DNA of 64,000 nucleotides from a virus: the IMG/VR virus record IMGVR_UViG_3300010413_000016, positions 10,770-74,769 of that record; one strand, given 5' to 3'. Positions within the stretch are counted from its first letter, which is position 1. Every line of letters begins with the position of its first letter. Positions 44,521-63,772 of this stretch are shown piece by piece. The position numbers were made by a program, and so were the translations under genes. The notes below the pieces were generated by a model. It searched no databases, was not told where the DNA came from, and saw only the letters and a list, made by a program, of their open reading frames with translations.

Positions 44521-44880
44521 GGTTGGTTCCTTTTTGTATTATATAGGGAAACAAAAACTCATGGTTATTTTTGTGCCCTCCCATTTTCAGAACGATTTTT
44601 TTTTTTTAAAAATTTTTTCGCACCACGATTTTTCGATGGCGGGATATTTTCCGGGGGGGGGAGCAGAAACTCTAATCTAAGATCCATAATATTAACGGGA
44701 GAGATGATTGTAGAAAATGTATGGGAACGTGTGGCGGAAATTGGCGGGCGATGTTTTCAGGGTGAAAAATTTGGTATACGTTGAACCTAGCAAAGAAGGG
44801 TATAATCGCCCATCGGTGTTCTTAGGGACCTGGCCTCTCGATTTTACCAGATTCTATTTTCAAAGTCAACTGTTGACTTT
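44521..44880. other. non-coding strand-switch region with homopolymer tracts
   Basis: T12 at 44596-44607, G9 at 44653-44661, palindrome AAAGTCAAC-T-GTTGACTTT at 44862-44880. Confidence 0.7.
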
Positions 44881-45048
44881 TAGTTAGTGGGAGGAGCCGA
44901 GTCTCCTTCCACTCAGATCATAGCATTCATGTTGTCTTCTTCATCAAGATGGTGTACGACTTGCTACGTGACTTGTCTCCTCCCTATCAACTGTCGTGAT
45001 TAGATTGATTGAAAGATATATTATCTCTCACCCTAACTATGAAGTCAA

Positions 45049-45147
45049 CTAGTACCCCATACCGACTGCAGCCACAGATGCTGCCATCAAGGTGATGATG
45101 GGAGTAACGATAACAACTGCCACAATGATGATCACTTTCTGTTTCAT
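45049..45147 (-). CDS. 32-aa single-TM peptide (MKQKVIIIV...GMGY)
   Basis: Own promoter and SD; paralog at 53059-53157; below the ORF-track size cutoff. Confidence 0.7.
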   Translation of the reverse strand: MKQKVIIIVAVVIVTPIITLMAASVAAVGMGY

Positions 45148-45211
45148 CTCATCTCTCTTTTCTCTCAACTGTTGAAGCTATTATAGCTCCAACAGTTGAA
45201 GAAGTCAACTG

Positions 45212-45547
45212 TTATTTTAATTCATACTTGCTAAACATATTGACGTCAATATCAGATGACAGAATTTGTTCAACTTCTTGTTTGATCTTGTTCATTCGTT
45301 TTGTGACAATGTCAACACTCACAGAACGTGATTGATTGATATAGTAATCACTAGATTCAATATAGTTTAAATTGAATTGTTCTGTGAATTTGACGTCTGC
45401 ATCATGAAAGTCAGACACAGTTGAATCTTCGTTCATAACAAAGATAATGAAGTCGTCATCAACACTACTGATGATACAGTTGTCTATGTTTGTATCAACT
45501 TCATGTTCAATAAACAGATAATTGAACGATATGAATACTTTTTTCAT
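45212..45547 (-). CDS. early hypothetical protein
   Basis: Cassette ORF with own promoter; start corrected. Confidence 0.6.
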   Translation of the reverse strand: MKKVFISFNYLFIEHEVDTNIDNCIISSVDDDFIIFVMNEDSTVSDFHDADVKFTEQFNLNYIESSDYYINQSRSVSVDIVTKRMNKIKQEVEQILSSDIDVNMFSKYELK

Positions 45548-45649
45548 GTGATCTCTCAGTTCTCTCAACTCAGAGATACTATCTCATGATTCATGATTGA
45601 AGACAACAGATGGAGAGATTCAGATAATGAATCTCTCCATCAACTGAAC

Positions 45650-46141
45650 TTATTTGCTCAGTTTCTTTTTGATGTTGTAGTGATATGTAGATGCACCTGC
45701 TTGAGTCATGTCAAGTTCTGCCATGAAACGAGTGATAACATCTTTTCTTGCAGGATGTTGACCATCAACTATCATACTGATGTATATTTCTTCTGCAATT
45801 TGTGACTTTGATACTTTCTTTTCTTTTTGTACTTTGACCGTTTCTACTTTCGGCTTTGTATCTTTGATCTTACGAACTTTCTTCTGTTCAGTTATCTTTT
45901 CTTGTTGTGCAATAAATTCAACAATTTCCTTTTCAGTTTCAGTAACTGCATCTTCAACACTCAACATCTTACTGTCAACATGTGACATCATCCATTCTTG
46001 TTTGTATTCTTCTTTCCATTGTTTGAATGGAATATAATCTTCAGAAGGAAATGATGCGGCTGCTTTCTCTTCTTTATACAGAGTCAGAAGTGAAATGTTA
46101 TCCGGAAATTGTGATTCGATTTGATTGATTACGTGTTGCAT
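45650..46141 (-). CDS. early protein with C-terminal RKxxIxRF...AGASTY domain; paralog of 49152
   Basis: Sequence similarity within the window. Confidence 0.8.
   Translation of the reverse strand: MQHVINQIESQFPDNISLLTLYKEEKAAASFPSEDYIPFKQWKEEYKQEWMMSHVDSKMLSVEDAVTETEKEIVEFIAQQEKITEQKKVRKIKDTKPKVETVKVQKEKKVSKSQIAEEIYISMIVDGQHPARKDVITRFMAELDMTQAGASTYHYNIKKKLSK
45681..45778. repeat. 98-bp perfect repeat, identical to 50277-50374
   Basis: Identical DNA encoding SMIVDGQHPARKDVITRFMAELDMTQAGASTY. Confidence 0.95.
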
Positions 46142-46472
46142 GTTGTTTTCCTCTCTCAATTGTTGAATCTATTATCTGTCCAGTTGGTCACTTTGTCAAC
46201 ATGTTTCTGAAATTAATTTCAATCGATTCATGTTTGTGTGCCAATGAGGACACCATCTAATAAAGAGAGGCTGAGGGCAACAATTAATTTGAGCCGATAT
46301 TTGATCGGCTGATAAGGAGATGTGATTAGAGTTCCAACTTGATGGTTGGAGATGATGGGTGGATCAATTTGATCACTTCAGATCCACCCATCATATAATA
46401 GGTGGAGGCTACAAGTAGCCTCCTGAGTCGTCCGCCGGGAGAGATGAGAGAGAGGAGTGGCGGACGACTCTG

Positions 46473-46792
46473 TTAACTTGCTAACTTCACTGTTGCCATC
46501 CCAAGTCCGTAACCGAACGCGAATATTGCGATCGAGAGGCCGAGAACAGCTACCTTGGCGTTGTTACCAAGTGCCCCAAAGAATAGGACGATGAGACCTA
46601 GCACGAAGGCGACAACCCAGAGGATAACCGCCATAACTATCATCATGGTTTAGTCCTGCCGTTCCATACTTGTAGAGCAACTCCCGTGAAGAAGCCAGAC
46701 AAACAGACTAGAGTAGAGATGACATCGTTGGTGGCAATGTAGGCGCCCATTCCGATAATCACACCAAGTAATCCAAGTACAATTGCTTTCAT
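46473..46792 (-). CDS. two small membrane-protein genes (46643-46792, 46473-46643)
   Basis: Hydrophobic two-TM peptides of about 50 aa; coupled. Confidence 0.55.
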
Positions 46793-46851
46793 CCCATCAT
46801 TCCACTTTTGTCTCTCAACCGATGACAGTATCATCCCACTTTTATGTGGTG

Positions 46852-47402
46852 TCAAGCGGCCCTTTTCAGCTCAGGATGGTTAGTTGCCATCCAACGAACA
46901 AGGTCAGGAATGTTGTTGCTGAACTCTTCGAACGGAACGGTCGTGTGGCTGAAGATTAGACCACCGCTGAGGAAGTCAATGTCGATCGTATTGTTTGCGT
47001 AGTTGATACAAGCTTTGCAGATCGAGTGTGCCTTGTTACGATCAGCTACATGAATGTACGTGACCTTCGCTGCAGGATAGTTGTTCGCCAAGTAGTCGTA
47101 CATGTTGCCATTTGCTTCAACTTGCATGTTAGTGTCCTCTCAATTGTTAGAGGAATTATAGCTCAGCCACTCAAAAGAGTCAACAGCTATTTGGATATTG
47201 CCCACATCGACGTGAGCGCATACAATGACCACCCAAGCCCTTCGAAGAAGACAAACACAATCAGTGCTGATTTCAGTGGAATCAGCCACTTAACGTGATA
47301 GTCGCCATACGCTTCGATCTTGTTGTGATCTTCAAACAAAATGAATCTGGCATATTCTATCAAGATCAATATGATCAAGAACTCAAAATGGATGGCGTTC
47401 AT
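46852..47402 (-). CDS. two early hypothetical genes (46852-47127; 47187-47402, membrane)
   Basis: SD-led cassette ORFs. Confidence 0.6.
47139..47189 (-). repeat. 51-bp promoter repeat identical to 53499-53549
   Basis: ctcaattgttagaggaattatagctcagccactcaaaagagtcaacagcta. Confidence 0.9.
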
Positions 47403-47434
47403 GTTTTCTTCTCCTTATTGGAGGAGTTATTCTC

Positions 47435-47842
47435 CTACAACACACTTTCAGCATCAACAGCTGAAAGTGGAAAACTTCCGACATAACGAGCTCGATTTTT
47501 ACGGAAGACAGCTTGATATTTGCCAATGTTCACGTCTTCGTGAGCATCAATTTGGTACACTTTAACAGAAAAGTTACTTTCATCCATTGCTTGACGAACA
47601 CGTGATGATATTGTCCAGTCTTTAAGTTGTTGTTTGGAGCCAAATCCAAAGAACCAATTACGCCGATCATCATATTCGATGCTATCCCACATGAGGAAAT
47701 GGTCATCTTCTGGCACTGGGTGTTTTGGGTCGGCGATCGAAGATACATATTCAAGGTCACCAAATGATACTGACCGATTGGTGGAATTGCGGTTGTACAT
47801 TCCTGTACCCTTGGCATGTTCGACGCGTAGAACTGTAATCAT
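47435..47842 (-). CDS. early phage protein, possible ADP-ribosyltransferase-like fold
   Basis: LRVEH...HPxPxxD...FGFGS..QL..W...QAVF; start corrected. Confidence 0.5.
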   Translation of the reverse strand: MITVLRVEHAKGTGMYNRNSTNRSVSFGDLEYVSSIADPKHPVPEDDHFLMWDSIEYDDRRNWFFGFGSKQQLKDWTISSRVRQAMDESNFSVKVYQIDAHEDVNIGKYQAVFRKNRARYVGSFPLSAVDAESVL

Positions 47843-47905
47843 TTGTGATCTCCTCTCAATTGATGGGGCCATTATAGCCCCACCCTGAGTTGAAGTCAAC
47901 GGGAG

Positions 47906-48503
47906 TCACAGACGTTTCAGTTCAGACTCCAAACGATTTCGAAAATTCTTATATTGGTCGGTTTCGCTGTACTTCATGTAGAAGTCATGGTATGCCGGGC
48001 GAGGAGGTTGGGACAACAACTTCTCCCTGCCGATTGTGATGTCGAATTTCATCGTTTTCCACGAGCTTTGAAATTCATACGATACGCTACCAAACACCTC
48101 GATTCCTTTCAGAATCATAAGGGAGCCAGTGTTAGCCCAGTTGCGTTCTTGTTCGGACTCAAATCCACACTGGCTAATCAGGTCCATCAAATCTTTCAGG
48201 ATACGGGTTTGCATTGACATGGCGATCTCCTCTCATTTAATAGAGATATTATAGCTCCATCCTATGATGAAGTCAACTGATTTTGTAAATCAGCAGGTCA
48301 GATTCTTCCCCAGCCTCACAGGCAAAGATTTCATCTACTTGTCCGAAGGTTGAGTATTTGAGGTAGGCTTCTTGTTTTTCATGTGAGTCTTCAATCTCAT
48401 AAAAGATGAAGGCTGCTTGCTGATGGGTATCAGCCTCAATCACCCGGTGACTAGATTCGCGAGTGTCATAACGATCGAACCAAATTACTAAGAACTGTGC
48501 CAT
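47906..48503 (-). CDS. two early hypothetical genes (47906-48220, 48273-48503)
   Basis: Each has its own promoter and SD. Confidence 0.65.
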
Positions 48504-48572
48504 CTCTCTTCAATTCTCTCTTGTGTTAATTGATGAGACCAGCATAGCACATCCTCGTCTTAGAGTCAACGA

Positions 48573-49091
48573 TTATTTGAATTCAAACGGACCATTAAAC
48601 TTCTGCTTGTTGATAGTAACAGAAGTGATAGAAGAGATTTCGAAAGTTCGGATGATGACTTTGTTTTCCAGCCCACCCTGACTCGATTCTGGCTTACTTT
48701 CAGGAATACCTTCGATTTGATCTTTGGGAGTTACGACACCATCTACTTCGTAATGAGTAGTTCCCTTGTTGAGGAAGATGACTTCGAGGTAGTGTTTCTC
48801 TTTATATTCTACGAAAGGAATTCCTTCCAGCCGAGTTCCCCAAGTACGAGGACCAACAGTAAACGACTCAGGATCTTTACCTTCTTTACCGAGACGACGT
48901 TTCACCATCTCACCGTAGCCACTTTTCTCTTTGTTCTGAAAGACCATGACATTAGAGCCAACGGTTACCTTCCGAACGCGACCTTGCAGAAGATTATGAC
49001 GACCACCACGAAGCTTGACGTTAGTGGAAGTGTCAATGCTGATGAAAGTTGCGCCATTAACAGCATCCATGATTTTGCGGATATTGTTCAT
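48573..49091 (-). CDS. conserved early phage protein
   Basis: Promoter cassette; start corrected to MNNIRK. Confidence 0.75.
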   Translation of the reverse strand: MNNIRKIMDAVNGATFISIDTSTNVKLRGGRHNLLQGRVRKVTVGSNVMVFQNKEKSGYGEMVKRRLGKEGKDPESFTVGPRTWGTRLEGIPFVEYKEKHYLEVIFLNKGTTHYEVDGVVTPKDQIEGIPESKPESSQGGLENKVIIRTFEISSITSVTINKQKFNGPFEFK

Positions 49092-49098
49092 TCGTGAT

Positions 49099-49149
49099 CT
49101 CCTCTCAATTGATGGGGCCATTATAGCCCCATCCTGAGTTGAAGTCAAC
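49099..49149 (-). repeat. 51-bp promoter-hairpin-SD repeat, identical to 51745-51795; one mismatch to 47850-47900
   Basis: ctcctctcaattgatggggccattatagccccatcctgagttgaagtcaac. Confidence 0.95.
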
Positions 49150-49151
49150 CG

Positions 49152-49631
49152 TTAGCTGAGTTTCTTTTTGATATTGTATTGATAAGTAGAAGCACCAGCT
49201 ACTGACATGTTCAGTTCATTCATGAAACGTTGTACTACTTCCTTTCTTGCAGGATGGTTACCATTGACCATCATTTCCTGATAGACCTTCAAAGCACGTT
49301 CAGCTTTGGTTGGAACTTTCTCTTTCTTGACTTTGACCTTAGGAGTACTTTTGATCTTCCGTACAGTTACCTTTTTCTCAGGTTTTGCCTGTTGTTGCTT
49401 TTGATCGTTTTCCATTTCTTCTTCAGACAACTTGACAGCAGTCTCAGCATCAACCAATTTTGAAGTTGAGTGAGTCTCCAACCATTCTACTTTGTATGAC
49501 GCTCTCCAATCCTGAAAGGAAGGAAACGGATCTGAAGGAAAATCCATCTGCTCTTTCTCAATCTTGTATAGAGCAAGCAGGTTGATGTTGTTGGGGAATT
49601 TAGTTTCGATTGATTTGATTTGCTTCGCCAT
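49152..49631 (-). CDS. early protein with RKxxVxRF...AGASTY domain; paralog of 45650
   Basis: Sequence similarity; tandem promoters upstream. Confidence 0.8.
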   Translation of the reverse strand: MAKQIKSIETKFPNNINLLALYKIEKEQMDFPSDPFPSFQDWRASYKVEWLETHSTSKLVDAETAVKLSEEEMENDQKQQQAKPEKKVTVRKIKSTPKVKVKKEKVPTKAERALKVYQEMMVNGNHPARKEVVQRFMNELNMSVAGASTYQYNIKKKLS

Positions 49632-49789
49632 GCGAAATCCTCTCTCTCGTTTGTTAACTGTTGAAGCTATTATCTTCTAAGTTGGGTCTCATGTCGACAA
49701 ACTTTTCAATTTATTTTTCGTTGAAACACTTGCTGCATGTGATAGAGAGACTATCCAATAAGATGGGCCTGTTGTCAACAGGAACAGCG

Positions 49790-49833
49790 AAAAAAATGGG
49801 TGGCAGCAAAATGAGAGAGGAGCTGCCACCCAT
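49790..49833 (-). terminator. intrinsic terminator with CU-rich loop
   Basis: 12-bp stem, loop UCCUCUCUCAUUUU, U tail on the minus strand. Confidence 0.8.
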
Positions 49834-49924
49834 AAGGGCAAGTTATCCGCCCTCAACATGTATTAATAATGCAACCGACAAAGAGAGTCCACAGGTTATG
49901 GGTTGAAATGCTTTGTCGGTTGCC

Positions 49925-50185
49925 TTAAACTGGTTTCTTGGCGACCTGCTCCATTATATAATCGCGCAGATCGTCTTTCATTTCTTCTTCACAATCATTG
50001 AAGTCGAACTTTTCAGTTCCATCAATGTTTGCAGCAAAAACGTTTGCCACACGTTGTGAAGTTTCATCAGAGAACCATTTGACGTTCAGACCAAGCTCAT
50101 CAGCGAGTTCTTGACGTGTGTACGTTTGTTCTGCATTGCCGAACTGATCAGCAGGAACATGAAACTGCGCATTTGGATCTGACAT
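49925..50185 (-). CDS. early acidic hypothetical protein
   Basis: Own promoter and SD. Confidence 0.65.
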   Translation of the reverse strand: MSDPNAQFHVPADQFGNAEQTYTRQELADELGLNVKWFSDETSQRVANVFAANIDGTEKFDFNDCEEEMKDDLRDYIMEQVAKKPV

Positions 50186-50245
50186 CTAACTTCTCCTCTC
50201 ATTGGATGGAGCCATTATCGCTCCATCCTGAGTTGGTGTCAACAG

Positions 50246-50680
50246 TTATTCAGAACACTCTTTCTTGCAAGTATTTTGATATGTAGATGCACCTGCTTGA
50301 GTCATGTCAAGTTCTGCCATGAAACGAGTGATAACATCTTTTCTTGCAGGATGTTGACCATCAACTATCATACTTTGGTAGATGGCAACTGCTTTTTCCT
50401 TTTTACTTGTACCATCTGTTGACTTTGTATGAGGTTTACGTTTGGTAGAGGTAGAAGTTGTCACTTCTTTCTCTTTTTTAGGAAGTGCAATTCTCCATTC
50501 TTTTGGCTCAGGAATTTCTTTGAGTGTGCCATCATCATGAGGAATCTTTACAGTAGACCCATTAGGAGAAATCTCGATAATGGCATGCACTGCAGAGTAG
50601 TCAACTACTTTGCCATTATGAGTGAACTCACCATTCTCATCTTCACCCTTCCACTCAACAAACTGACCTTTCGTAAACAT
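50246..50680 (-). CDS. early protein: SH3-like N-terminus + AGASTY domain
   Basis: FTKGQFVEW...GKVV N-terminus; C-terminus identical in DNA to that of 45650. Confidence 0.75.
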   Translation of the reverse strand: MFTKGQFVEWKGEDENGEFTHNGKVVDYSAVHAIIEISPNGSTVKIPHDDGTLKEIPEPKEWRIALPKKEKEVTTSTSTKRKPHTKSTDGTSKKEKAVAIYQSMIVDGQHPARKDVITRFMAELDMTQAGASTYQNTCKKECSE

Positions 50681-50896
50681 TTTTGATTCTCCTCTCTCAA
50701 CTGATGAGTCCATTATAGATCCACCGGTTGAAGAAGTCAACACAAATCATGAAATTTTTCTGTTGTTCCCAACTTCAACTATGTTGAAGGTGTGTTGATG
50801 TGAGTGATCAGATCTCATAACTGAATACTATCTTCGTGATCAAATGTAGTGATAGAAGTGGATATATGCCACACTTCTAGCCTCTATTTTCTACCA

Positions 50897-51196
50897 TCAG
50901 TGGTGGAAATCATCATCAAAGAACGCGAACAGATACACCCCTTCTTCCTCGAGATTGTCAGAGTTAAATGCTAATCCCTTTTTGTGGTCACCTTTGTACT
51001 CAACGACAAAGTCTCCCAGCTCTGGATAGTCAACTTTGGGATGCCCAGCTTCTTGCATCAGTTCTACCAATTTGGCTGTGTCTCGTTCACTGATGCATGC
51101 ATCGCCTGTGGACAAACTGAATGCATCGATATCAATTACTTGAGTAACGATATCGAACATCTGTTGTGCCCACTCATTCAGAATCATGCCAGACAT
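50897..51196 (-). CDS. early acidic hypothetical protein
   Basis: Own promoter and SD. Confidence 0.6.
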   Translation of the reverse strand: MSGMILNEWAQQMFDIVTQVIDIDAFSLSTGDACISERDTAKLVELMQEAGHPKVDYPELGDFVVEYKGDHKKGLAFNSDNLEEEGVYLFAFFDDDFHH

Positions 51197-51289
51197 CTCA
51201 TATCTCCTTCCTCAACTGATGATGCTACTATCCCACATCATCACAAGAAGATCAACAACATCCCACTACCATCCCACTTTCGTGGAACA

Positions 51290-51435
51290 AAAAAAGAGGC
51301 CGACATGTGCCAGCCTCGAAAAGGAGGACGCTTGTGGTCCTCAGGGGGAAGAAGTGGTCGGCGGCCAAGAGAGAGGAGAGAGGGCGGCCGCCAACCGGGT
51401 AAACTTTCAAGCTACATCGTTCTCCTCAACCGATG
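51290..51435 (-). ncRNA. candidate small RNA cassette (promoter, SD-ATG-TAG, hairpins, terminator)
   Basis: TTGCAT-17-TATAGT at 51441-51469; start-stop at 51412-51417; CU-loop hairpin 51356-51396; terminator about 51290-51317. Confidence 0.6.
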
Positions 51436-51458
51436 ACTCTACTATACTTTATTCCGTG

Positions 51459-53045
51459 TTAGGATGCAACAGGCTCCACCATGAAAGTTGTCAGCCAGTC
51501 GCATACATCTTCGTGGGTGAGCAGCTCAATACCTTCCTCACCATCGCGAACGTACCAACTACATTCGTGGGCACATAGAGTGCTTGTTCCAACAATGTCA
51601 GTTACACTAAACTCGTTGGCTACCTCGATGAACTGAGGAATCGTCAGTGATGAGCCATCTGAGTCGTTGTAGGCAATATCGCCATCAAGAGTATACTTGT
51701 GTCCATTGCCGAGTGTCGCTGCTCCATAAATGTGCATTTGCTTTCTCCTCTCAATTGATGGGGCCATTATAGCCCCATCCTGAGTTGAAGTCAACGTTAC
51801 ATTGACCAATAGGTCTCTGAAGCAGGAGAGCATGAGTTAGGAGTGTTGATCGGTTCCTGATACTCTTTGCCGCTCATCAGGTTGGTGCGAGTAACCATCT
51901 TCTCGATGTTCTCAGCAAAGTCACGACTGTCAGCAATCGCGTAGTCGTCCTTCGTAGCACCATCGTGGAGCTTACCTTTGTTGTCAAGACGAGTCAGCGC
52001 CGCTTTGGCTGCACGCTCAGTCTTGTAGCTCTCAACCCAACATCCCCACGACTTGCTCGGCGCTTTGAGGATCAGGGTGGTTTCTTTGTGATAGATTACG
52101 TAGCTCATTTTGTTTCTCCTCTCTCAAGTGTTGAAGTAATTATAGCCCAACACCTGAGAGAAGTCAACGGTTAGAGTTTCAACTCTTCTTTCAGCGCATC
52201 ATAGATTGCCTGGCGAAATTCTCGAGTCTCTTCGGAGTACATGTCCTTGATATTCTCGTCGATCCAGTCGGCGATCTCTTCACCATCTTTGATGCCTCCA
52301 TCACTGGCAAGCCACTCGTACGGACTTTCGATTGGGTTCTCGTAGTGGGCCATCATCAGACAGGCAATGTGTTTGGCTGCCTTTGTCATTGTGTTCATTT
52401 ATATCTCCTCATTTGATGAGGAGCGTCGCTCCTCATCAAACTGTTGACAACGTTTACTTTTCGCTGTTTTCGAGATGCTCTTTGTAGTACTCGATGGCAG
52501 CTTCAACGCGATCGTCACCATCGATGCCGTAGATCTTGTAGTCGCCCATCGTGGTGGTGTTCTCATCATTGATATACTCGAACCCACCATAGTACTCGAG
52601 TGAGCGGATATTGTGTGCCTTGGTGATGATCAGCTCGTCATTAAGGTCAACGAACACGTGACCAGCACGTGAGTCAAGGCCGATCTTGTCAGCACGAACG
52701 TATGGAAGATCCTCAATGACGTTGCCAAGCATCTCGTTTGCTTCGTCGATTACGTTCAGTAGTTCCATTGCTTCTCTCCTTTCGTGATTGATGGGGCCAT
52801 TATAGCCCCATCCTGAATTGAAGTCAACGTTCGATGTACTCACCGTTGAGCCAAGCCTGCATTACCTCTACAGTTTGACGTACTTGATCTTCGGTCATTT
52901 GGATGGAAGCAGGAGAACGGTCTCCTGGTACGATACCTTGGTTCAGTTGAAGACAACGACCTGGTGTGATACCACGGAATGAAGTCAACATTACTTCTTG
53001 AACGTTTCCAGTTTCATCGATTGCTGATTTCAGATTGATGCTCAT
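51459..53045 (-). CDS. five early hypothetical genes (51459-51737, 51797-52108, 52171-52398, 52454-52768, 52824-53045)
   Basis: SD-led cassette ORFs; 51797 has a NLMSG...TP..CSPASETYWSM motif seen in T4-type phages. Confidence 0.7.
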
Positions 53046-53058
53046 GATGCATCCTCCC

Positions 53059-53157
53059 TTAGTACCCCATTCCAGTGGCAGTGAACAGGGCGAGTCCAGC
53101 CAGGATGGTCGGAGTGGTGACTACAACTGCTGCGATGATGATTACTTCCTCTTTCAT
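53059..53157 (-). CDS. 32-aa single-TM peptide (MKEEVIIIA...GMGY)
   Basis: Own promoter and GAGAGGAG SD; paralog of 45049. Confidence 0.7.
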   Translation of the reverse strand: MKEEVIIIAAVVVTTPTILAGLALFTATGMGY

Positions 53158-53207
53158 GATGATCTCCTCTCACTATGAGTACATTATTGCTCAACCACAC
53201 CAAGAAG

Positions 53208-55309
53208 TCAACAGTGGTTGGGATCTTGGCCTGAGAGAACACACATGGCAATTGCCGTTGTCTTATTAACGCGTTTGGCATACGATATGAGGTTCTCGAC
53301 AGGAATCGATTCCTCGATATCATCGCTAACCTGCTTGTGGCACATCCCTTCAAGGGAAAGGGAGATCGAGTTGCTGGTGTAGCCATTCTCATGGCAAACA
53401 GCTTTGTCATCACCATACGCCCACGCAACAGCAAGAACGTAGAAGGCAGCGAACATCAGAGTAATCGGTAACAGGTGCTTTTTCATTTCATCTTTCTCCT
53501 CAATTGTTAGAGGAATTATAGCTCAGCCACTCAAAAGAGTCAACAGCTAATTAATCTCAATGTCGAATTCGTGAGCTGCTGAACGGTAGAATGTGTACAC
53601 GTCGCTGGTGCCGACCCCCTCACCTTTAGGAAAGCTCTCAAGACTGCAACAGACTGAGTACATCCGAGTAGATACATCATCATTGTGGATGTCAAGACCA
53701 AGATGGGCAGCGCAGCGATGCATTACACTGAGAACCAGATCAGTCGTATTGAAAGCATTTGCGTTATACTTGCTCATTGTCTTCCCTCTCTCAGATGTCA
53801 GGGTAAGTATAGCTCATCCTTGAGCTAAAGTCAACTACACGTTGAAGTAGACTGCAGTGCGACGACCATTAATATCGACGTATGCATAATCGGCAGTTAC
53901 GTGCTCCCTTACATCTTCTTCGTTGTTCCAATCGATGTTGGCGTTGATCTTGTTGATAGCAAGCTTGACCGCACGGTCGTTGGTTGTCTCATACGCATCG
54001 TAACCAACGTCTTTGTTCGCCTGTTCGATGCCATAGTGGCTTGCAATATAGTAGTTACCTTGGCAACCACACATGCAGCCAACCTTGCCGTTGTATGACT
54101 GCTTGACGTCTTCAAATTTGATCATCTTGGTGCTCTCCTCTCAAATGGTGGCCCTATTATAGGCCACCATTCAGTTGAAGTCAACAGTTGCAAACAGATT
54201 CAGAACTTACTAAACTCATCCGAGTATCGTAAATCCTGGAACGTTGGAAGATTACTACCGTCCCGTCGTTCAAGGTATGCCGCATACTGGCCAGTCCGCT
54301 TTTCTTGGTGCCTTGCCTTGTGACTCTTATTGAGGTATCGTCCCCAGCCCCGTTTCCTGTCCGCTTCACGGACCTCACGAGTCTGTCCACATCCACAAGC
54401 ACACTTTATTGTCACCATCTTTGCCATCGTAGAGTCCTCACCCGTCAATCTCATCAATGTTCATATCGTTACCACTCCTGCTATGCGAAAGTGCCTAGCT
54501 CAACTTTCCAGTCTGTATGTGAAAATCCACTTGGGAAAATGCGTTCGATCTCTGCAGTAATCTCTTTTGCAGAACTACTAACGTTAATGTACATTCCATC
54601 TCCAGGGCGCCTTACTTCTTCTCCTCGCTGGAAGATTGGGGATTTGCGAACCTTCTCATTGCTCATCGGATTCTGACTGAACATGTATCCTGGAATAAAC
54701 ACTTTGAAGTTGGTAGCTCCTGTAGAAGTAAGAAACGATTTGCTCATCACATGTCTCTCTTTGTGTTAACTGCAATTCCACTATAATCCCATTATAGTCC
54801 CACTTTCGTTAGATGTCAACGTCACTTTACATCAGCTGGACGGAAAGAGAGGGTAGCAGACTGCTACCCTCTCTGGAAACGTGTCAATCTTTGTGTTTTA
54901 AAAAAGCCGTTAGTTGTGTCGTGTCTGTGGTTTGCGTTAAGTGTTACATGTCTACTCACCTCCTAAGAGTTATTTTATTAGGTTCGTTCGTGTGTAAACT
55001 TTGATAAGAATTCCATTCTCCATCAACGGGAGAGATGGGTCAACGTTCTCTCCTTGCGTCCTGATAACTCTGAAGAGTACGAAGACGGGAGAGTAGGGTG
55101 TTAGTAGTATTTCGGAACTGGATGCCAAGTTGTTCCATCATATGGACAGATCGCTCATAAAAGGTCAACAGGCTACGAAGCTCATCGTCGGAGATTGCGT
55201 CACCACGCAGGAAAGCTTCGTTTGCTTCTTTGTTGAGAGACGTCATAACCATCGTGGCATCCTTTGTAAGAATTAGGGATGTCTGATCGGCCCCACTCCA
55301 ATACGCCAT
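53208..55309 (-). CDS. six early hypothetical genes (53208-53486 exported, 53547-53777, 53835-54125, 54200-54427 Cys-rich, 54481-54750, 55040-55309)
   Basis: Cassette organisation; CMCGC and CACGC motifs in two of them. Confidence 0.6.
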
Positions 55310-61864: not shown

Positions 61865-62023
61865 ACATCCCAGTATCACCAACGTTTTTAATTCGTGACG
61901 GAGAAGCTTATTTCAAGCCTCTTTGGTCAACGGAATTCACTACGGTTATCTTCTTCCCTGGAAAAGACTTAAAGTCTTTCTGGAGATGGATCGGAGCAAT
62001 TTAATCCATATATCTTCGACTAG

Positions 62024-62052
62024 TTGACTCCGTAATCCCGTTAGGATATAAT
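62024..62052 (+). promoter_or_regulatory. strong sigma70 promoter
   Basis: TTGACT-17-TATAAT. Confidence 0.85.
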
Positions 62053-62072
62053 GGGGTCATCAGTTAGAAAAC

Positions 62073-62087
62073 GCTCTTTAACAATTT
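62073..62087 (+). promoter_or_regulatory. rrn-type boxA antitermination element
   Basis: GCTCTTTAACAATTT matches the proteobacterial rRNA-leader boxA; about 15 nt after the predicted TSS. Confidence 0.75.
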
Positions 62088-62089
62088 GT

Positions 62090-62995
62090 ATTGCTCATAA
62101 GAGGAAGCTAGGTTCACCTCCGGCCTACGACGAATGCTTCGTGGCCCCTCATCGGACCGCCACCGGACCGTGTATTCTGAGGTCAGGAACCGAACTGAAA
62201 AATCGCCAGCCGAATCTTATACCCATCTAGCAGATGTGGATGTTTAGGATAGTGACGAGACAATGAAGCCCCGGAGCCATTTGGGGTGGAGTCGCCCTTG
62301 AAATAGTCACCTGAAACATTTGTTAGTCGAGCCATTCCGTAGGTTGGGGTAGCGGTAATCGAGTTCTGTGGACAGACAACCCTTAGAGCCGGTCACACCA
62401 CGGTATGGGTGACTTAATAATGGATTGGGATGTTTGACGGAGATACGATGATAGCCGCGAAAGCGGAGTCTGAAACGACCCCTAAAGGTTAAGGCCGATC
62501 TGACACAGATCTTTTTACGGAGTGTCTCTTTTTAGTTGCGTAGCCTACACTGCGTGGTTTGTAGGGACCGAACTGACCTACCACAAAAACGTGATAGATA
62601 TTACACACATGAAAACAACGTCGTGTAATATATTTGGTGTTATGATGTTCACCAACGTCGGAAAATGATGGAAGATTACAACGGCCGGTGACCAGAAGAC
62701 TACTGGTCGGGGCTAGATGGATGTCATGGTCTTCTGAAAAGAGGGGGCACTCCGTAAAAAGATATTTAATTCTCATCATGTGAGTTTACCTGTGGGCTTA
62801 TATGATTATGCAGACATCGGTGTAGTCGGAGATATAGTGGTAACTCAAGCATGTAATGCAACGGACCGACGAATCCACCCAGTAAGACAGTCCGAGCTTG
62901 GTAGCTGCTACTGGTTAAAGAAGCTGATAAACAAGCTAGAGAGATTTGGCAACAGTGTTGCAACCGGTATTTGAGAAGTATCGAAAGAATCTCTC
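62090..62995 (+). ncRNA. large structured non-coding RNA(s), family unassigned
   Basis: No SD-led ORF; many helices including CCGC-GAAA-GCGG (62455-62466) and a long stem 62509/62763. Confidence 0.6.
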
Positions 62996-63014
62996 GGATC
63001 TAATTCAACTCTAG

Positions 63015-63043
63015 TTGATTTCACAAATCAACTAGGGTACAAT
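63015..63043 (+). promoter_or_regulatory. sigma70 promoter overlapped by an inverted repeat
   Basis: TTGATT-17-TACAAT; CTAGTTGATTT/AAATCAACTAG at 63011-63035. Confidence 0.7.
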
Positions 63044-63049
63044 AGTTTT

Positions 63050-63170
63050 GGTGTGAGGTGTTGTAGTTAACCTGGGGCACTGGGTTAGCGTAAAATGGTA
63101 CATACCCTTTTTCTATAAGGGAGTAGCGAGATGGACTGCAGCCATCGTGGTTTCGAATCCCGCCACACCA
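63050..63170 (+). ncRNA. tRNA-like RNA (121 nt, non-canonical)
   Basis: GGTGTG/CACACC acceptor-like stem, TTCGAAT T-loop, ends ACCA; no clean anticodon arm. Confidence 0.5.
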
Positions 63171-63509
63171 ATAAATTTTGTGGTGCTAACGCACTCCAAA
63201 AAGCGGATTGCATGAAAAACATTTCTAGAGATGTTGGAAGTGCAGGCGTATTGCACGGTTGATGAAGCCCTGATTGATCAAACCTTCGTCATTCCATGGG
63301 ACCAATAAATCTTGTGGGTAAAAATGATTGGTAAGTTAGGAAAGATTAGATAAGCGGTCAACTTCGACCTTAGTTGGAGCTCACTCAACTTTGGTGACGT
63401 TTAATTTGCTGTGAGACATCTAGCGGAGAAGGATTAGTTCTAGGCCCCTCATAGATGCTATAATGATGAGCCGGCAGGCACTTGCTGAAAAATTAATAGA
63501 CCGTAACGC

Positions 63510-63542
63510 CCCCACCTGTTAGTGTCGCAGGTGGGGTTTTTT
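63510..63542 (+). terminator. intrinsic terminator closing the ncRNA cluster
   Basis: CCCCACCTG/CAGGTGGGG stem followed by T6. Confidence 0.85.
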
Positions 63543-63601
63543 GTTGACCCCAATACTATATTATGTGATAATATCTCCATCGAATGCAAGGAGAGTAAGA
63601 G

Positions 63602-63772
63602 ATGATAGAAGATATTCGTAATAAAGTACTGGAAGCTGTAGACGAGGGGATGATCGATAAAGATTATCTCATCTCAGCCTGTCTGCAGTACTTGGATCCT
63701 GACGACGTCAAGGATATGCTGTATGTGAATGAAATTTCTCTGAATCCTGGACATGAAGACGAGGAAGAATAA
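63602..63772 (+). CDS. 56-aa acidic hypothetical protein
   Basis: TTGACC-17-GATAAT promoter (63544-63572); AGGAG SD. Confidence 0.65.
   Translation: MIEDIRNKVLEAVDEGMIDKDYLISACLQYLDPDDVKDMLYVNEISLNPGHEDEEE

Follow-up and report, generated by a model that had tools for sequence, protein, structure and literature searches.

A boxA-led, untranslated unit with a tRNA-like element in the genome of an uncultivated phage

Introduction

Phage genomes can contain large noncoding regions that represent GOLLD/ROOL-type ornate RNAs, in some cases beside transfer RNAs (tRNAs). Ribosomal RNA (rRNA) operons, here called rrn, are also transcribed without being translated, and roles in them have been described for boxA, for the Nus factors and for the helix formed between leader and trailer (PMC10250234, PMC4807359). 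Among phages, T4 makes two stable RNAs that are not tRNAs, rnaC and rnaD, which are classed as late and whose function is still unknown (PMC9697503). Here we analyse a locus with traits of rrn operons and of the T4 block, in which a sigma-70 promoter and an rrn-type boxA are followed by a long region without protein-coding capacity. It lies at positions 62024-63542 of a 64-kb stretch of DNA, called the window below, which comprises bases 10770-74769 of the 74.8-kb IMG/VR contig IMGVR_UViG_3300010413_000016 from an uncultivated virus. All coordinates are those of the window unless another record is named. The reading that we favour, with moderate confidence, is that this unit encodes an early polycistronic precursor of stable RNAs under Nus control, which would be cut into several small RNAs. 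The predicted products belong to no catalogued RNA family.

Results

A promoter and an rrn boxA precede an untranslated unit

The initial annotation of this DNA, made from the letters alone, had named a consensus promoter, an rrn boxA and the lack of any credible open reading frame (ORF) before an intrinsic terminator, and all three are confirmed by our analysis (Table 1). The -35 element (62024-62029) and the -10 element (62047-62052) would place the transcription start near 62059. The boxA stands 20 nt past the -10 element, i.e., ~14 nt past this predicted start, and is identical over its whole length to that of the Escherichia coli K-12 rrnB leader. Its first 12 nt (62073-62084) have no second copy in the window, even when one mismatch is allowed. 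The boxA is a candidate loading site for NusB/NusE on the nascent RNA.

The phage has an early-promoter cassette that consists of TTGACT, a 17-nt spacer, TATAAT, GGnnnCATCAnTT, a long GAGAGGAG-type ribosome-binding site and ATG. The cassette is present at ~12 promoters on the minus strand (window positions 44869-54819) and, as a variant, at 62024. This variant keeps the arrangement up to CATCAGTT, after which boxA occupies the place of the ribosome-binding site and the ATG. Since the promoter is of the early type, the unit is most likely transcribed early, by the unmodified host polymerase, and the substitution of boxA for the ribosome-binding site suggests that it is built for an untranslated transcript. 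In the cassettes, the spacer could often pair with the bases after the -10 element. An 8-mer located ~55 nt from the start of the transcript, UCACCUCC (62113-62120), is identical to the anti-Shine-Dalgarno sequence at the end of 16S rRNA. It lies 10 nt after an AAGAGGAAG motif, and an 8-mer of this kind would occur by chance in ~2% of sequences of 1.5 kb.

We found no credible ORF under four genetic codes in the 1.46 kb that separate the promoter and boxA from the terminator. The longest ORF under code 11 has 96 aa and retrieves only itself among 5.8 billion protein clusters, and with code 4, TAG=Q or TAA=Q no ORF attains ~160 aa. By a log-odds measure of codon usage, trained on the long ORFs of the phage, the region 61920-63540 never exceeds 0.03 per codon, compared with 0.1-0.24 in the neighbouring genes, and none of the ten ORFs of at least 43 aa in the unit has a match in Pfam. 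Downstream of the terminator, the next promoter is at 63544-63572 and the next gene starts at 63602.

Table 1. Elements of the unit, in transcriptional order, with the evidence by which each was delimited
Feature	Position	Strand	Basis or description
sigma-70 promoter, TTGACT-17-TATAAT	62024-62052	+	consensus scan; match at 11/12 positions
rrn-type boxA	62073-62087	+	15/15 nt identical to E. coli K-12 rrnB leader
5' segment, ~420 nt, ORF-free	62088-62508	+	local hairpins (GUCAC/GUGAC, 62392-62413; GAAA-capped, 62455-62466); no excess folding energy
stalk-closed module	62509-62763	+	25-bp duplex of 62509-62533 with 62739-62763 around 205 nt with ~8 hairpins
14-bp hairpin, 5 G.U pairs, + strand-specific	62775-62806	+	fold
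three-way element, 9-bp closing stem plus hairpins of 5 bp and 8 bp	62939-62995	+	fold
14-bp hairpin with 3-nt loop, directly 5' of tRNA-like unit	63008-63038	+	inverted repeat and fold
tRNA-like RNA, 123 nt	63049-63171	+	fold
spacer repeat, copy 1 (ACCA, A/U-rich run, UGUGG)	63167-63183	+	direct repeat, 17 nt
unit 2, ~130 nt, hairpins only, ends in ACCA	63172-63304	+	boundaries inferred from direct repeat
spacer repeat, copy 2	63301-63317	+	direct repeat
3' segment (unit 3), ~190 nt, no excess structure	63318-63509	+	z-score
intrinsic terminator	63510-63542	+	10-bp stem (7 G-C pairs, 63510-63536), then T6

The transcript is divided into modules

The folding energy of successive parts of the transcript was compared with that of shuffled sequences (dinucleotide shuffles for the 5' 450 nt). 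Structure above chance is limited to 62505-63172. It is strongest in 62505-62767, with a z-score of -5.97 and none of 200 shuffles folding as well, and it continues in 62768-63049, with z from -2.7 to -3.0 on the plus strand vs -0.6 on the minus strand. Within the latter region, 62934-63049 reaches -5.9 on the plus strand vs -2.3 on the minus strand. The values are -1.9 for 63046-63176, a marginal -1.7 to -1.9 for 63176-63310, and +1.3 to +1.45 for 63307-63505. The first ~420 nt had initially been described as helix-rich, with several named helices. These helices can be found about where they had been placed, including the two hairpins listed in Table 1 and the helix AUGUUU-AGG/CCU-C-AAACAU with its 1-nt bulge, but the region as a whole is not richer in structure than expected: 62059-62508 has a z-score of -0.70, and 29 of 100 shuffles fold as well.

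The most strongly folded part is closed by a 25-bp stalk. It contains four G.U pairs, so that the full duplex is possible only in RNA from the plus strand. A duplex of such length is a textbook substrate of RNase III, and the stalk is a candidate processing site for this enzyme. It is similar to the stalks that leader and trailer form in pre-rRNA (PMC10250234). Exactly at the start of its 5' arm lies a weak hairpin of terminator type (62497-62516), with a 6-bp stem followed by U5. The two structures are mutually exclusive, which makes it conceivable that the RNA switches between terminating or pausing and forming the stalk.

Two further 14-bp hairpins and a three-way element separate this module from a tRNA-like unit of 123 nt (Table 1). 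The latter has an acceptor stem of seven Watson-Crick pairs (63049-55 with 63164-70) and A63171 as discriminator base. A T arm (63147-63163) with the loop UUCGAAU and a single U-C mismatch in its 5-bp stem is contiguous with the acceptor stem. An anticodon-like arm (63105-63121) has a 5-bp stem and a 7-nt loop with U33-UCU-A37, and a 5-bp arm (63130-63146) occupies the position of the variable arm. The combination of T arm and acceptor stem occurs only once in the locus and nowhere else on either strand of the window. ARAGORN misses the unit with default settings and calls a 99-nt tRNA-Arg(tct) there when relaxed (-ps80). It is not a canonical tRNA, being 123 nt long instead of the standard 72-95 nt and having no standard D arm. 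A weak call of tRNA-Thr at the three-way element (62939-62995), also by relaxed ARAGORN, was not accepted as a tRNA. There is no transfer-messenger RNA (tmRNA) according to default ARAGORN or Rfam, and relaxed settings produced only permuted-tmRNA artefacts. Codon use in the contig is heavy for both AGA and AUA (9.1 and 13.8 per 1000 codons, respectively), and it has no canonical tRNA gene. The frequency of AGA makes a UCU decoder plausible; judging by its loop, the RNA may decode AGA or may act as a decoy.

Downstream of the tRNA-like unit, a spacer is present as two direct copies that are 94% identical and 134 nt apart, the first overlapping the 3' end of the tRNA-like unit. The repeat may serve as a signal for 3'-end processing or for cleavage by RNase E, and its copies delimit two more segments (units 2 and 3 in Table 1). 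The structured part is thus modular, comprising the segment closed by the stalk, the hairpins, the tRNA-like unit and the repeated spacer, and this fits a processed precursor of several RNAs better than a single RNA.

The unit also has shorter repeats. GGACCG occurs 4 times, where 0.3 copies are expected (sites in 62163-62176, 62185-62198, 62563-62576 and 62862-62868), with one tandem arrangement CGGACCG-CCAC-CGGACCG, and the 14-mer AGGRACCGAACUGA is present twice. These repeats may be protein-binding sites. The count of GGA in the unit is the same as in shuffles, and we rejected a role as a CsrA sponge.

Comparison with rRNA operons and with T4 stable RNAs

The organisation of the locus recalls that of E. 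coli rrnB. Both have a strong sigma-70 promoter, the same 15-nt boxA, a long untranslated transcript, a long duplex round a product, a tRNA-shaped unit downstream and an intrinsic terminator. They differ in the leader, as the E. coli rrn leader has a boxB hairpin before boxA and a G/U-rich boxC after it, whereas we found neither at the locus, where boxA follows so soon after the predicted start. They also differ in the product enclosed by the duplex, which has 1.5 kb in rrnB vs ~205 nt here, and the locus has no rRNA-like sequence. Rfam gave no match at gathering score, and at E up to 10 it gave only chance-level matches of snoRNA type. At this permissive level, 16S, 23S and 5S rRNA are all missing, and blastn of the locus against E. 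coli genomes gave nothing. We therefore rejected mimicry of rRNA or of another host RNA. The covariance models of GOLLD, ROOL, OLE and raiA did not match the locus either. GOLLD/ROOL RNAs differ from it in one more way, since no single global fold is supported here and much of the locus is without excess structure.

The resemblance to T4 concerns the products. In T4, tRNA-Arg(UCU) is directly followed by rnaD (species 2, 119 nt) and rnaC (species 1, 139 nt), i.e., small stable RNAs other than tRNAs stand beside a unit with a UCU anticodon, as we propose for this locus. T4 rnaC is itself tRNA-like, with an acceptor-like stem and a T arm whose loop is that of the present unit. The T4 units end in ACCA followed by AAU, and here ACCA is followed by the A/U-rich spacer. 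There are differences in expression: the T4 RNAs belong to the late class vs an early-type promoter here, and T4 has no boxA on the transcribed strand. Neither rnaC nor rnaD has an Rfam family. Since both are invisible to Rfam, the missing Rfam match says little about such RNAs.

To compare the tRNA-like unit with rnaC we used a covariance model built from 7 genera of Tevenvirinae. The unit is the best match to this model in the locus and aligns with it from end to end, with 11.4 bits. True members score 133-165 bits, and we therefore rejected the unit as a member of the rnaC family; for ordinary tRNAs, the range is 10-21 bits. Hence, the unit is as tRNA-like as real tRNAs are, without being a homologue of rnaC.

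Some features of rnaC itself were also noted. It is kept within the tRNA arrays of at least 7 genera of Tevenvirinae (T4, L047:2909-3047; others, L147-L152), and its fold covaries, with compensatory changes in 22 of 44 pairs. It is mostly unannotated, is sometimes covered by a coding sequence annotated as hypothetical protein, and is labelled tRNA-Lys in one case. In the tRNA region of another phage, the model has 15-bit matches of 116-121 nt (L004:817-932 and L004:1336-1456), which may be further oversized tRNA-like RNAs.

Promoter and boxA leaders in other phages

We scanned IMG/VR for the pattern formed by TATAAT, a spacer of 10-40 nt and the 15-nt boxA, and identified 45 loci. In 26 of them, from ~9 unrelated sequence families, the pattern is followed by a tRNA array. 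The first tRNA is ~10-200 nt from boxA in ~7 of these ~9 families, and the arrays behind promoter and boxA contain 3-11 canonical tRNAs (e.g., L004, L005, L019, L022, L024, L029, L038 and L044). Several of the remaining matches are inside genes and were ascribed to chance. On two 104-kb contigs, taken to be T5-like, the pattern precedes ORFs. Another boxA site with 1.5 kb free of ORFs behind it (L030/L031) was rejected as not comparable to the locus studied here, since it consists of AT-rich repeats and has a terminator directly after boxA. A consensus promoter followed by an exact rrn boxA is thus a recurrent, but not exclusive, leader of phage stable-RNA operons. We found no paper describing such a leader on phage tRNA arrays.

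The present locus has the same leader, with unfamiliar predicted RNAs and one tRNA-like unit in place of an array. It shares with the boxA tRNA operons the consensus -35 and -10 elements, the exact boxA 10-40 nt further on and the untranslated stable-RNA genes that follow, the latter being a prediction here. It differs in that those operons contain canonical tRNAs and the locus has none by default ARAGORN and Rfam. The similarity ends at boxA.

The source contig and its relatives

CheckV estimates the completeness of the contig at 23%, and the contig is a piece of a phage genome of roughly 300 kb. It encodes both rIIA and rIIB. The best match of rIIA among the 5.8 billion protein clusters has 39% identity, and the proteins of cultured Vibrio and T4-type phages are ~30% identical to it. 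Its closest relatives are found among uncultivated jumbo phages, with genomes of 290-520 kb. A 2.7-kb Logan contig encodes an 89% identical copy (P0002) of the 87-aa protein that is encoded upstream of the locus.

Homologues of the locus were sought at several levels of similarity. Against 50,697 phage records, blastn in near and distant modes returned only matches of the size of boxA. Scans of IMG/VR with the two flanking proteins, with rIIA and with a 24-mer, and scans of JGI metagenomes with flanking-protein alignments and with the promoter-boxA pattern, did not retrieve a homologous locus. A 20-mer scan of GTDB genomes gave four matches, all by chance. The 4-5 jumbo-phage records with the nearest rIIA (34-38% identity) have neither an exact boxA nor similarity to the locus.

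Discussion

The signals at both ends of the unit, its lack of coding capacity, its strand-specific helices and the tRNA-like geometry of one of its parts are consistent with an early, Nus-controlled precursor of several stable RNAs. Under this scenario, host RNA polymerase would start near 62059 at the early-class promoter, and boxA in the nascent RNA would recruit NusB/NusE (S10) of the host and the other rrn antitermination factors. The polymerase would then cross ~1.48 kb of untranslated RNA up to the terminator. RNase III would cut the 25-bp stalk and release a segment of ~205-255 nt, the flanks of the tRNA-like unit would be processed by RNase P and 3' trimming, and RNase E-type cuts may fall in the repeated ACCA and A/U spacers. 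One or two more RNAs of ~130-190 nt would result. If these products are stable, the locus may be, by analogy, the functional counterpart of the phage tRNA operons and of the T4 block of tRNA-Arg, rnaD and rnaC.

Several observations weigh against this scenario. The first concerns the meaning of boxA. In the cultured Vibrio phages Hades and D260, a boxA-like sequence lies just upstream of the genes of the pre-early proteins A2-A1, which are the first-step-transfer proteins (sites at L048:3001-3028 in Hades and L049:3001-3035 in D260). Because boxA can thus stand ahead of protein genes in T5-like phages, its presence alone does not imply RNA genes. The second concerns the need for antitermination. 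The transcript is rich in G (26% G, 20% C) and has a single window with more C than G (62150-62227), which is the one potential Rho loading site that we found, so that the need for protection against Rho is not obvious. The third is that ~45% of the transcript (~650 of the ~1480 nt; 62059-62508 and 63307-63505) is not more stably folded than shuffled sequences. The fourth concerns the tRNA-like unit. Its normal D arm is replaced by a 10-bp hairpin (63066-63089) and ~25 extra nt, it has no match to the tRNA family of Rfam (RF00005, E up to 10) and it stays below the level at which tRNAs are listed. Among 5000 shuffles of the locus, a T arm with a perfect acceptor stem occurs in 0.3%, and in 0.02% together with an anticodon-like arm, both being frequencies for criteria that were chosen post hoc. 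Finally, none of the searches described above retrieved a homologue from which covariation or conservation of the fold could be judged.

The initial annotation had the phage co-opting host rRNA antitermination to express one large RNA, either similar to GOLLD/ROOL or of a new class. Co-option of antitermination is the natural reading of a boxA that directly follows a strong host-type promoter in an untranslated unit, and it is retained in our scenario. The other part, a single intricately folded RNA of ~1.45 kb that acts as one molecule, is unlikely. In its favour, the unit has a single promoter and a single terminator at its ends, there are several long helices, and the minimum free energy (MFE) of the whole transcript is lower on the plus strand than on the minus strand (-471 vs -408 kcal/mol). 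However, the long-range pairs of the MFE structure are either unsupported or missing from the centroid, z-scores are ~-0.7 to +1.4 over the 450 nt at the 5' end and the 200 nt at the 3' end, and Rfam has no match even at E up to 10, be it to GOLLD, ROOL or any other known family. The internal tRNA-like unit and the repeated spacer argue for the excision of parts. A GOLLD/ROOL-like RNA of ~1.5 kb is also disfavoured by the ~650 nt without excess structure and by the modular layout.

The locus could instead be what is left of a decaying tRNA array, i.e., a leader and one deformed tRNA-Arg(UCU), the rest being functionless, drifting spacer. This would account for a leader that is typical of phage tRNA arrays, for a tRNA-like element that is single and non-canonical, for the large parts without a signal of structure, and for the absence of tRNAs in the whole 74.8-kb contig (default ARAGORN). 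We nevertheless regard it as improbable. In a tightly packed genome, the promoter, boxA and terminator have remained intact, with 11/12 and 15/15 matching positions in the first two. Decayed tRNAs would not be expected to leave a 25-bp stalk and 14-bp hairpins that contain G.U pairs, and Rfam reveals no tRNA fragments at E up to 10.

Expression of one or more micro-proteins is very unlikely. Two small ORFs have weak Shine-Dalgarno-like motifs that can be seen in the sequence: one of 43 aa (63131-63262, preceded by GGGAG) and one of 14 codons (62448-62492, preceded by GGAG). These motifs are far weaker than the standard long GAGAGGAG-type site of the phage, the coding score is at background throughout, Pfam is negative, the T arm of the tRNA-like unit lies within the longer of the two ORFs, and a translated messenger RNA would not need boxA. 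The least probable of the explanations that we considered is an element acting as DNA, such as a promoter-primed replication origin or a packaging or recombination site, since the position ~0.7 kb from the switch in gene orientation (~61.3 kb) and near the minimum of the cumulative GC skew, together with the use of promoter-derived primer RNA at some phage origins, is outweighed by the lack of iterons, AT-rich tract or tandem repeats at the locus, by a G+C content equal to that of the genome, and by a dedicated boxA, a terminator and G.U-dependent helices that point to RNA products. Explanations other than these five have a small joint probability.

The scenario of a processed, Nus-controlled precursor can be extended. 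In a fuller version, which we put forward tentatively and consider rather doubtful as a whole, the unit would be a mini rrn-style operon, in which the antitermination and RNA-chaperone complex of the host and the RNase III/RNase P route would produce unfamiliar stable RNAs early in infection. The oversized UCU-loop RNA would be an unconventional decoder of AGA or a decoy for host defences that target tRNAs, and the locus would represent a new class of phage RNA genes. One may also speculate that boxA serves co-transcriptional folding and processing, in line with its chaperone role (PMC10250234), as much as the blocking of Rho.

The tRNA-like unit joins the poorly understood tRNA-shaped phage RNAs of excessive size, among which T4 rnaC has been without a function for 50 years. 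Stable-RNA operons of phages can be sought by a simple sequence criterion, namely a consensus promoter with an exact rrn boxA directly behind it, and the leader predicts that the expression of phage tRNAs and noncoding RNAs behind it depends on NusB, NusE and SuhB. Should transcription and processing of the unit follow the proposed scheme, giant phages would employ the rRNA-specific transcription machinery of their host not only for tRNA arrays but also for other RNA genes, and would do so from the first minutes of infection.

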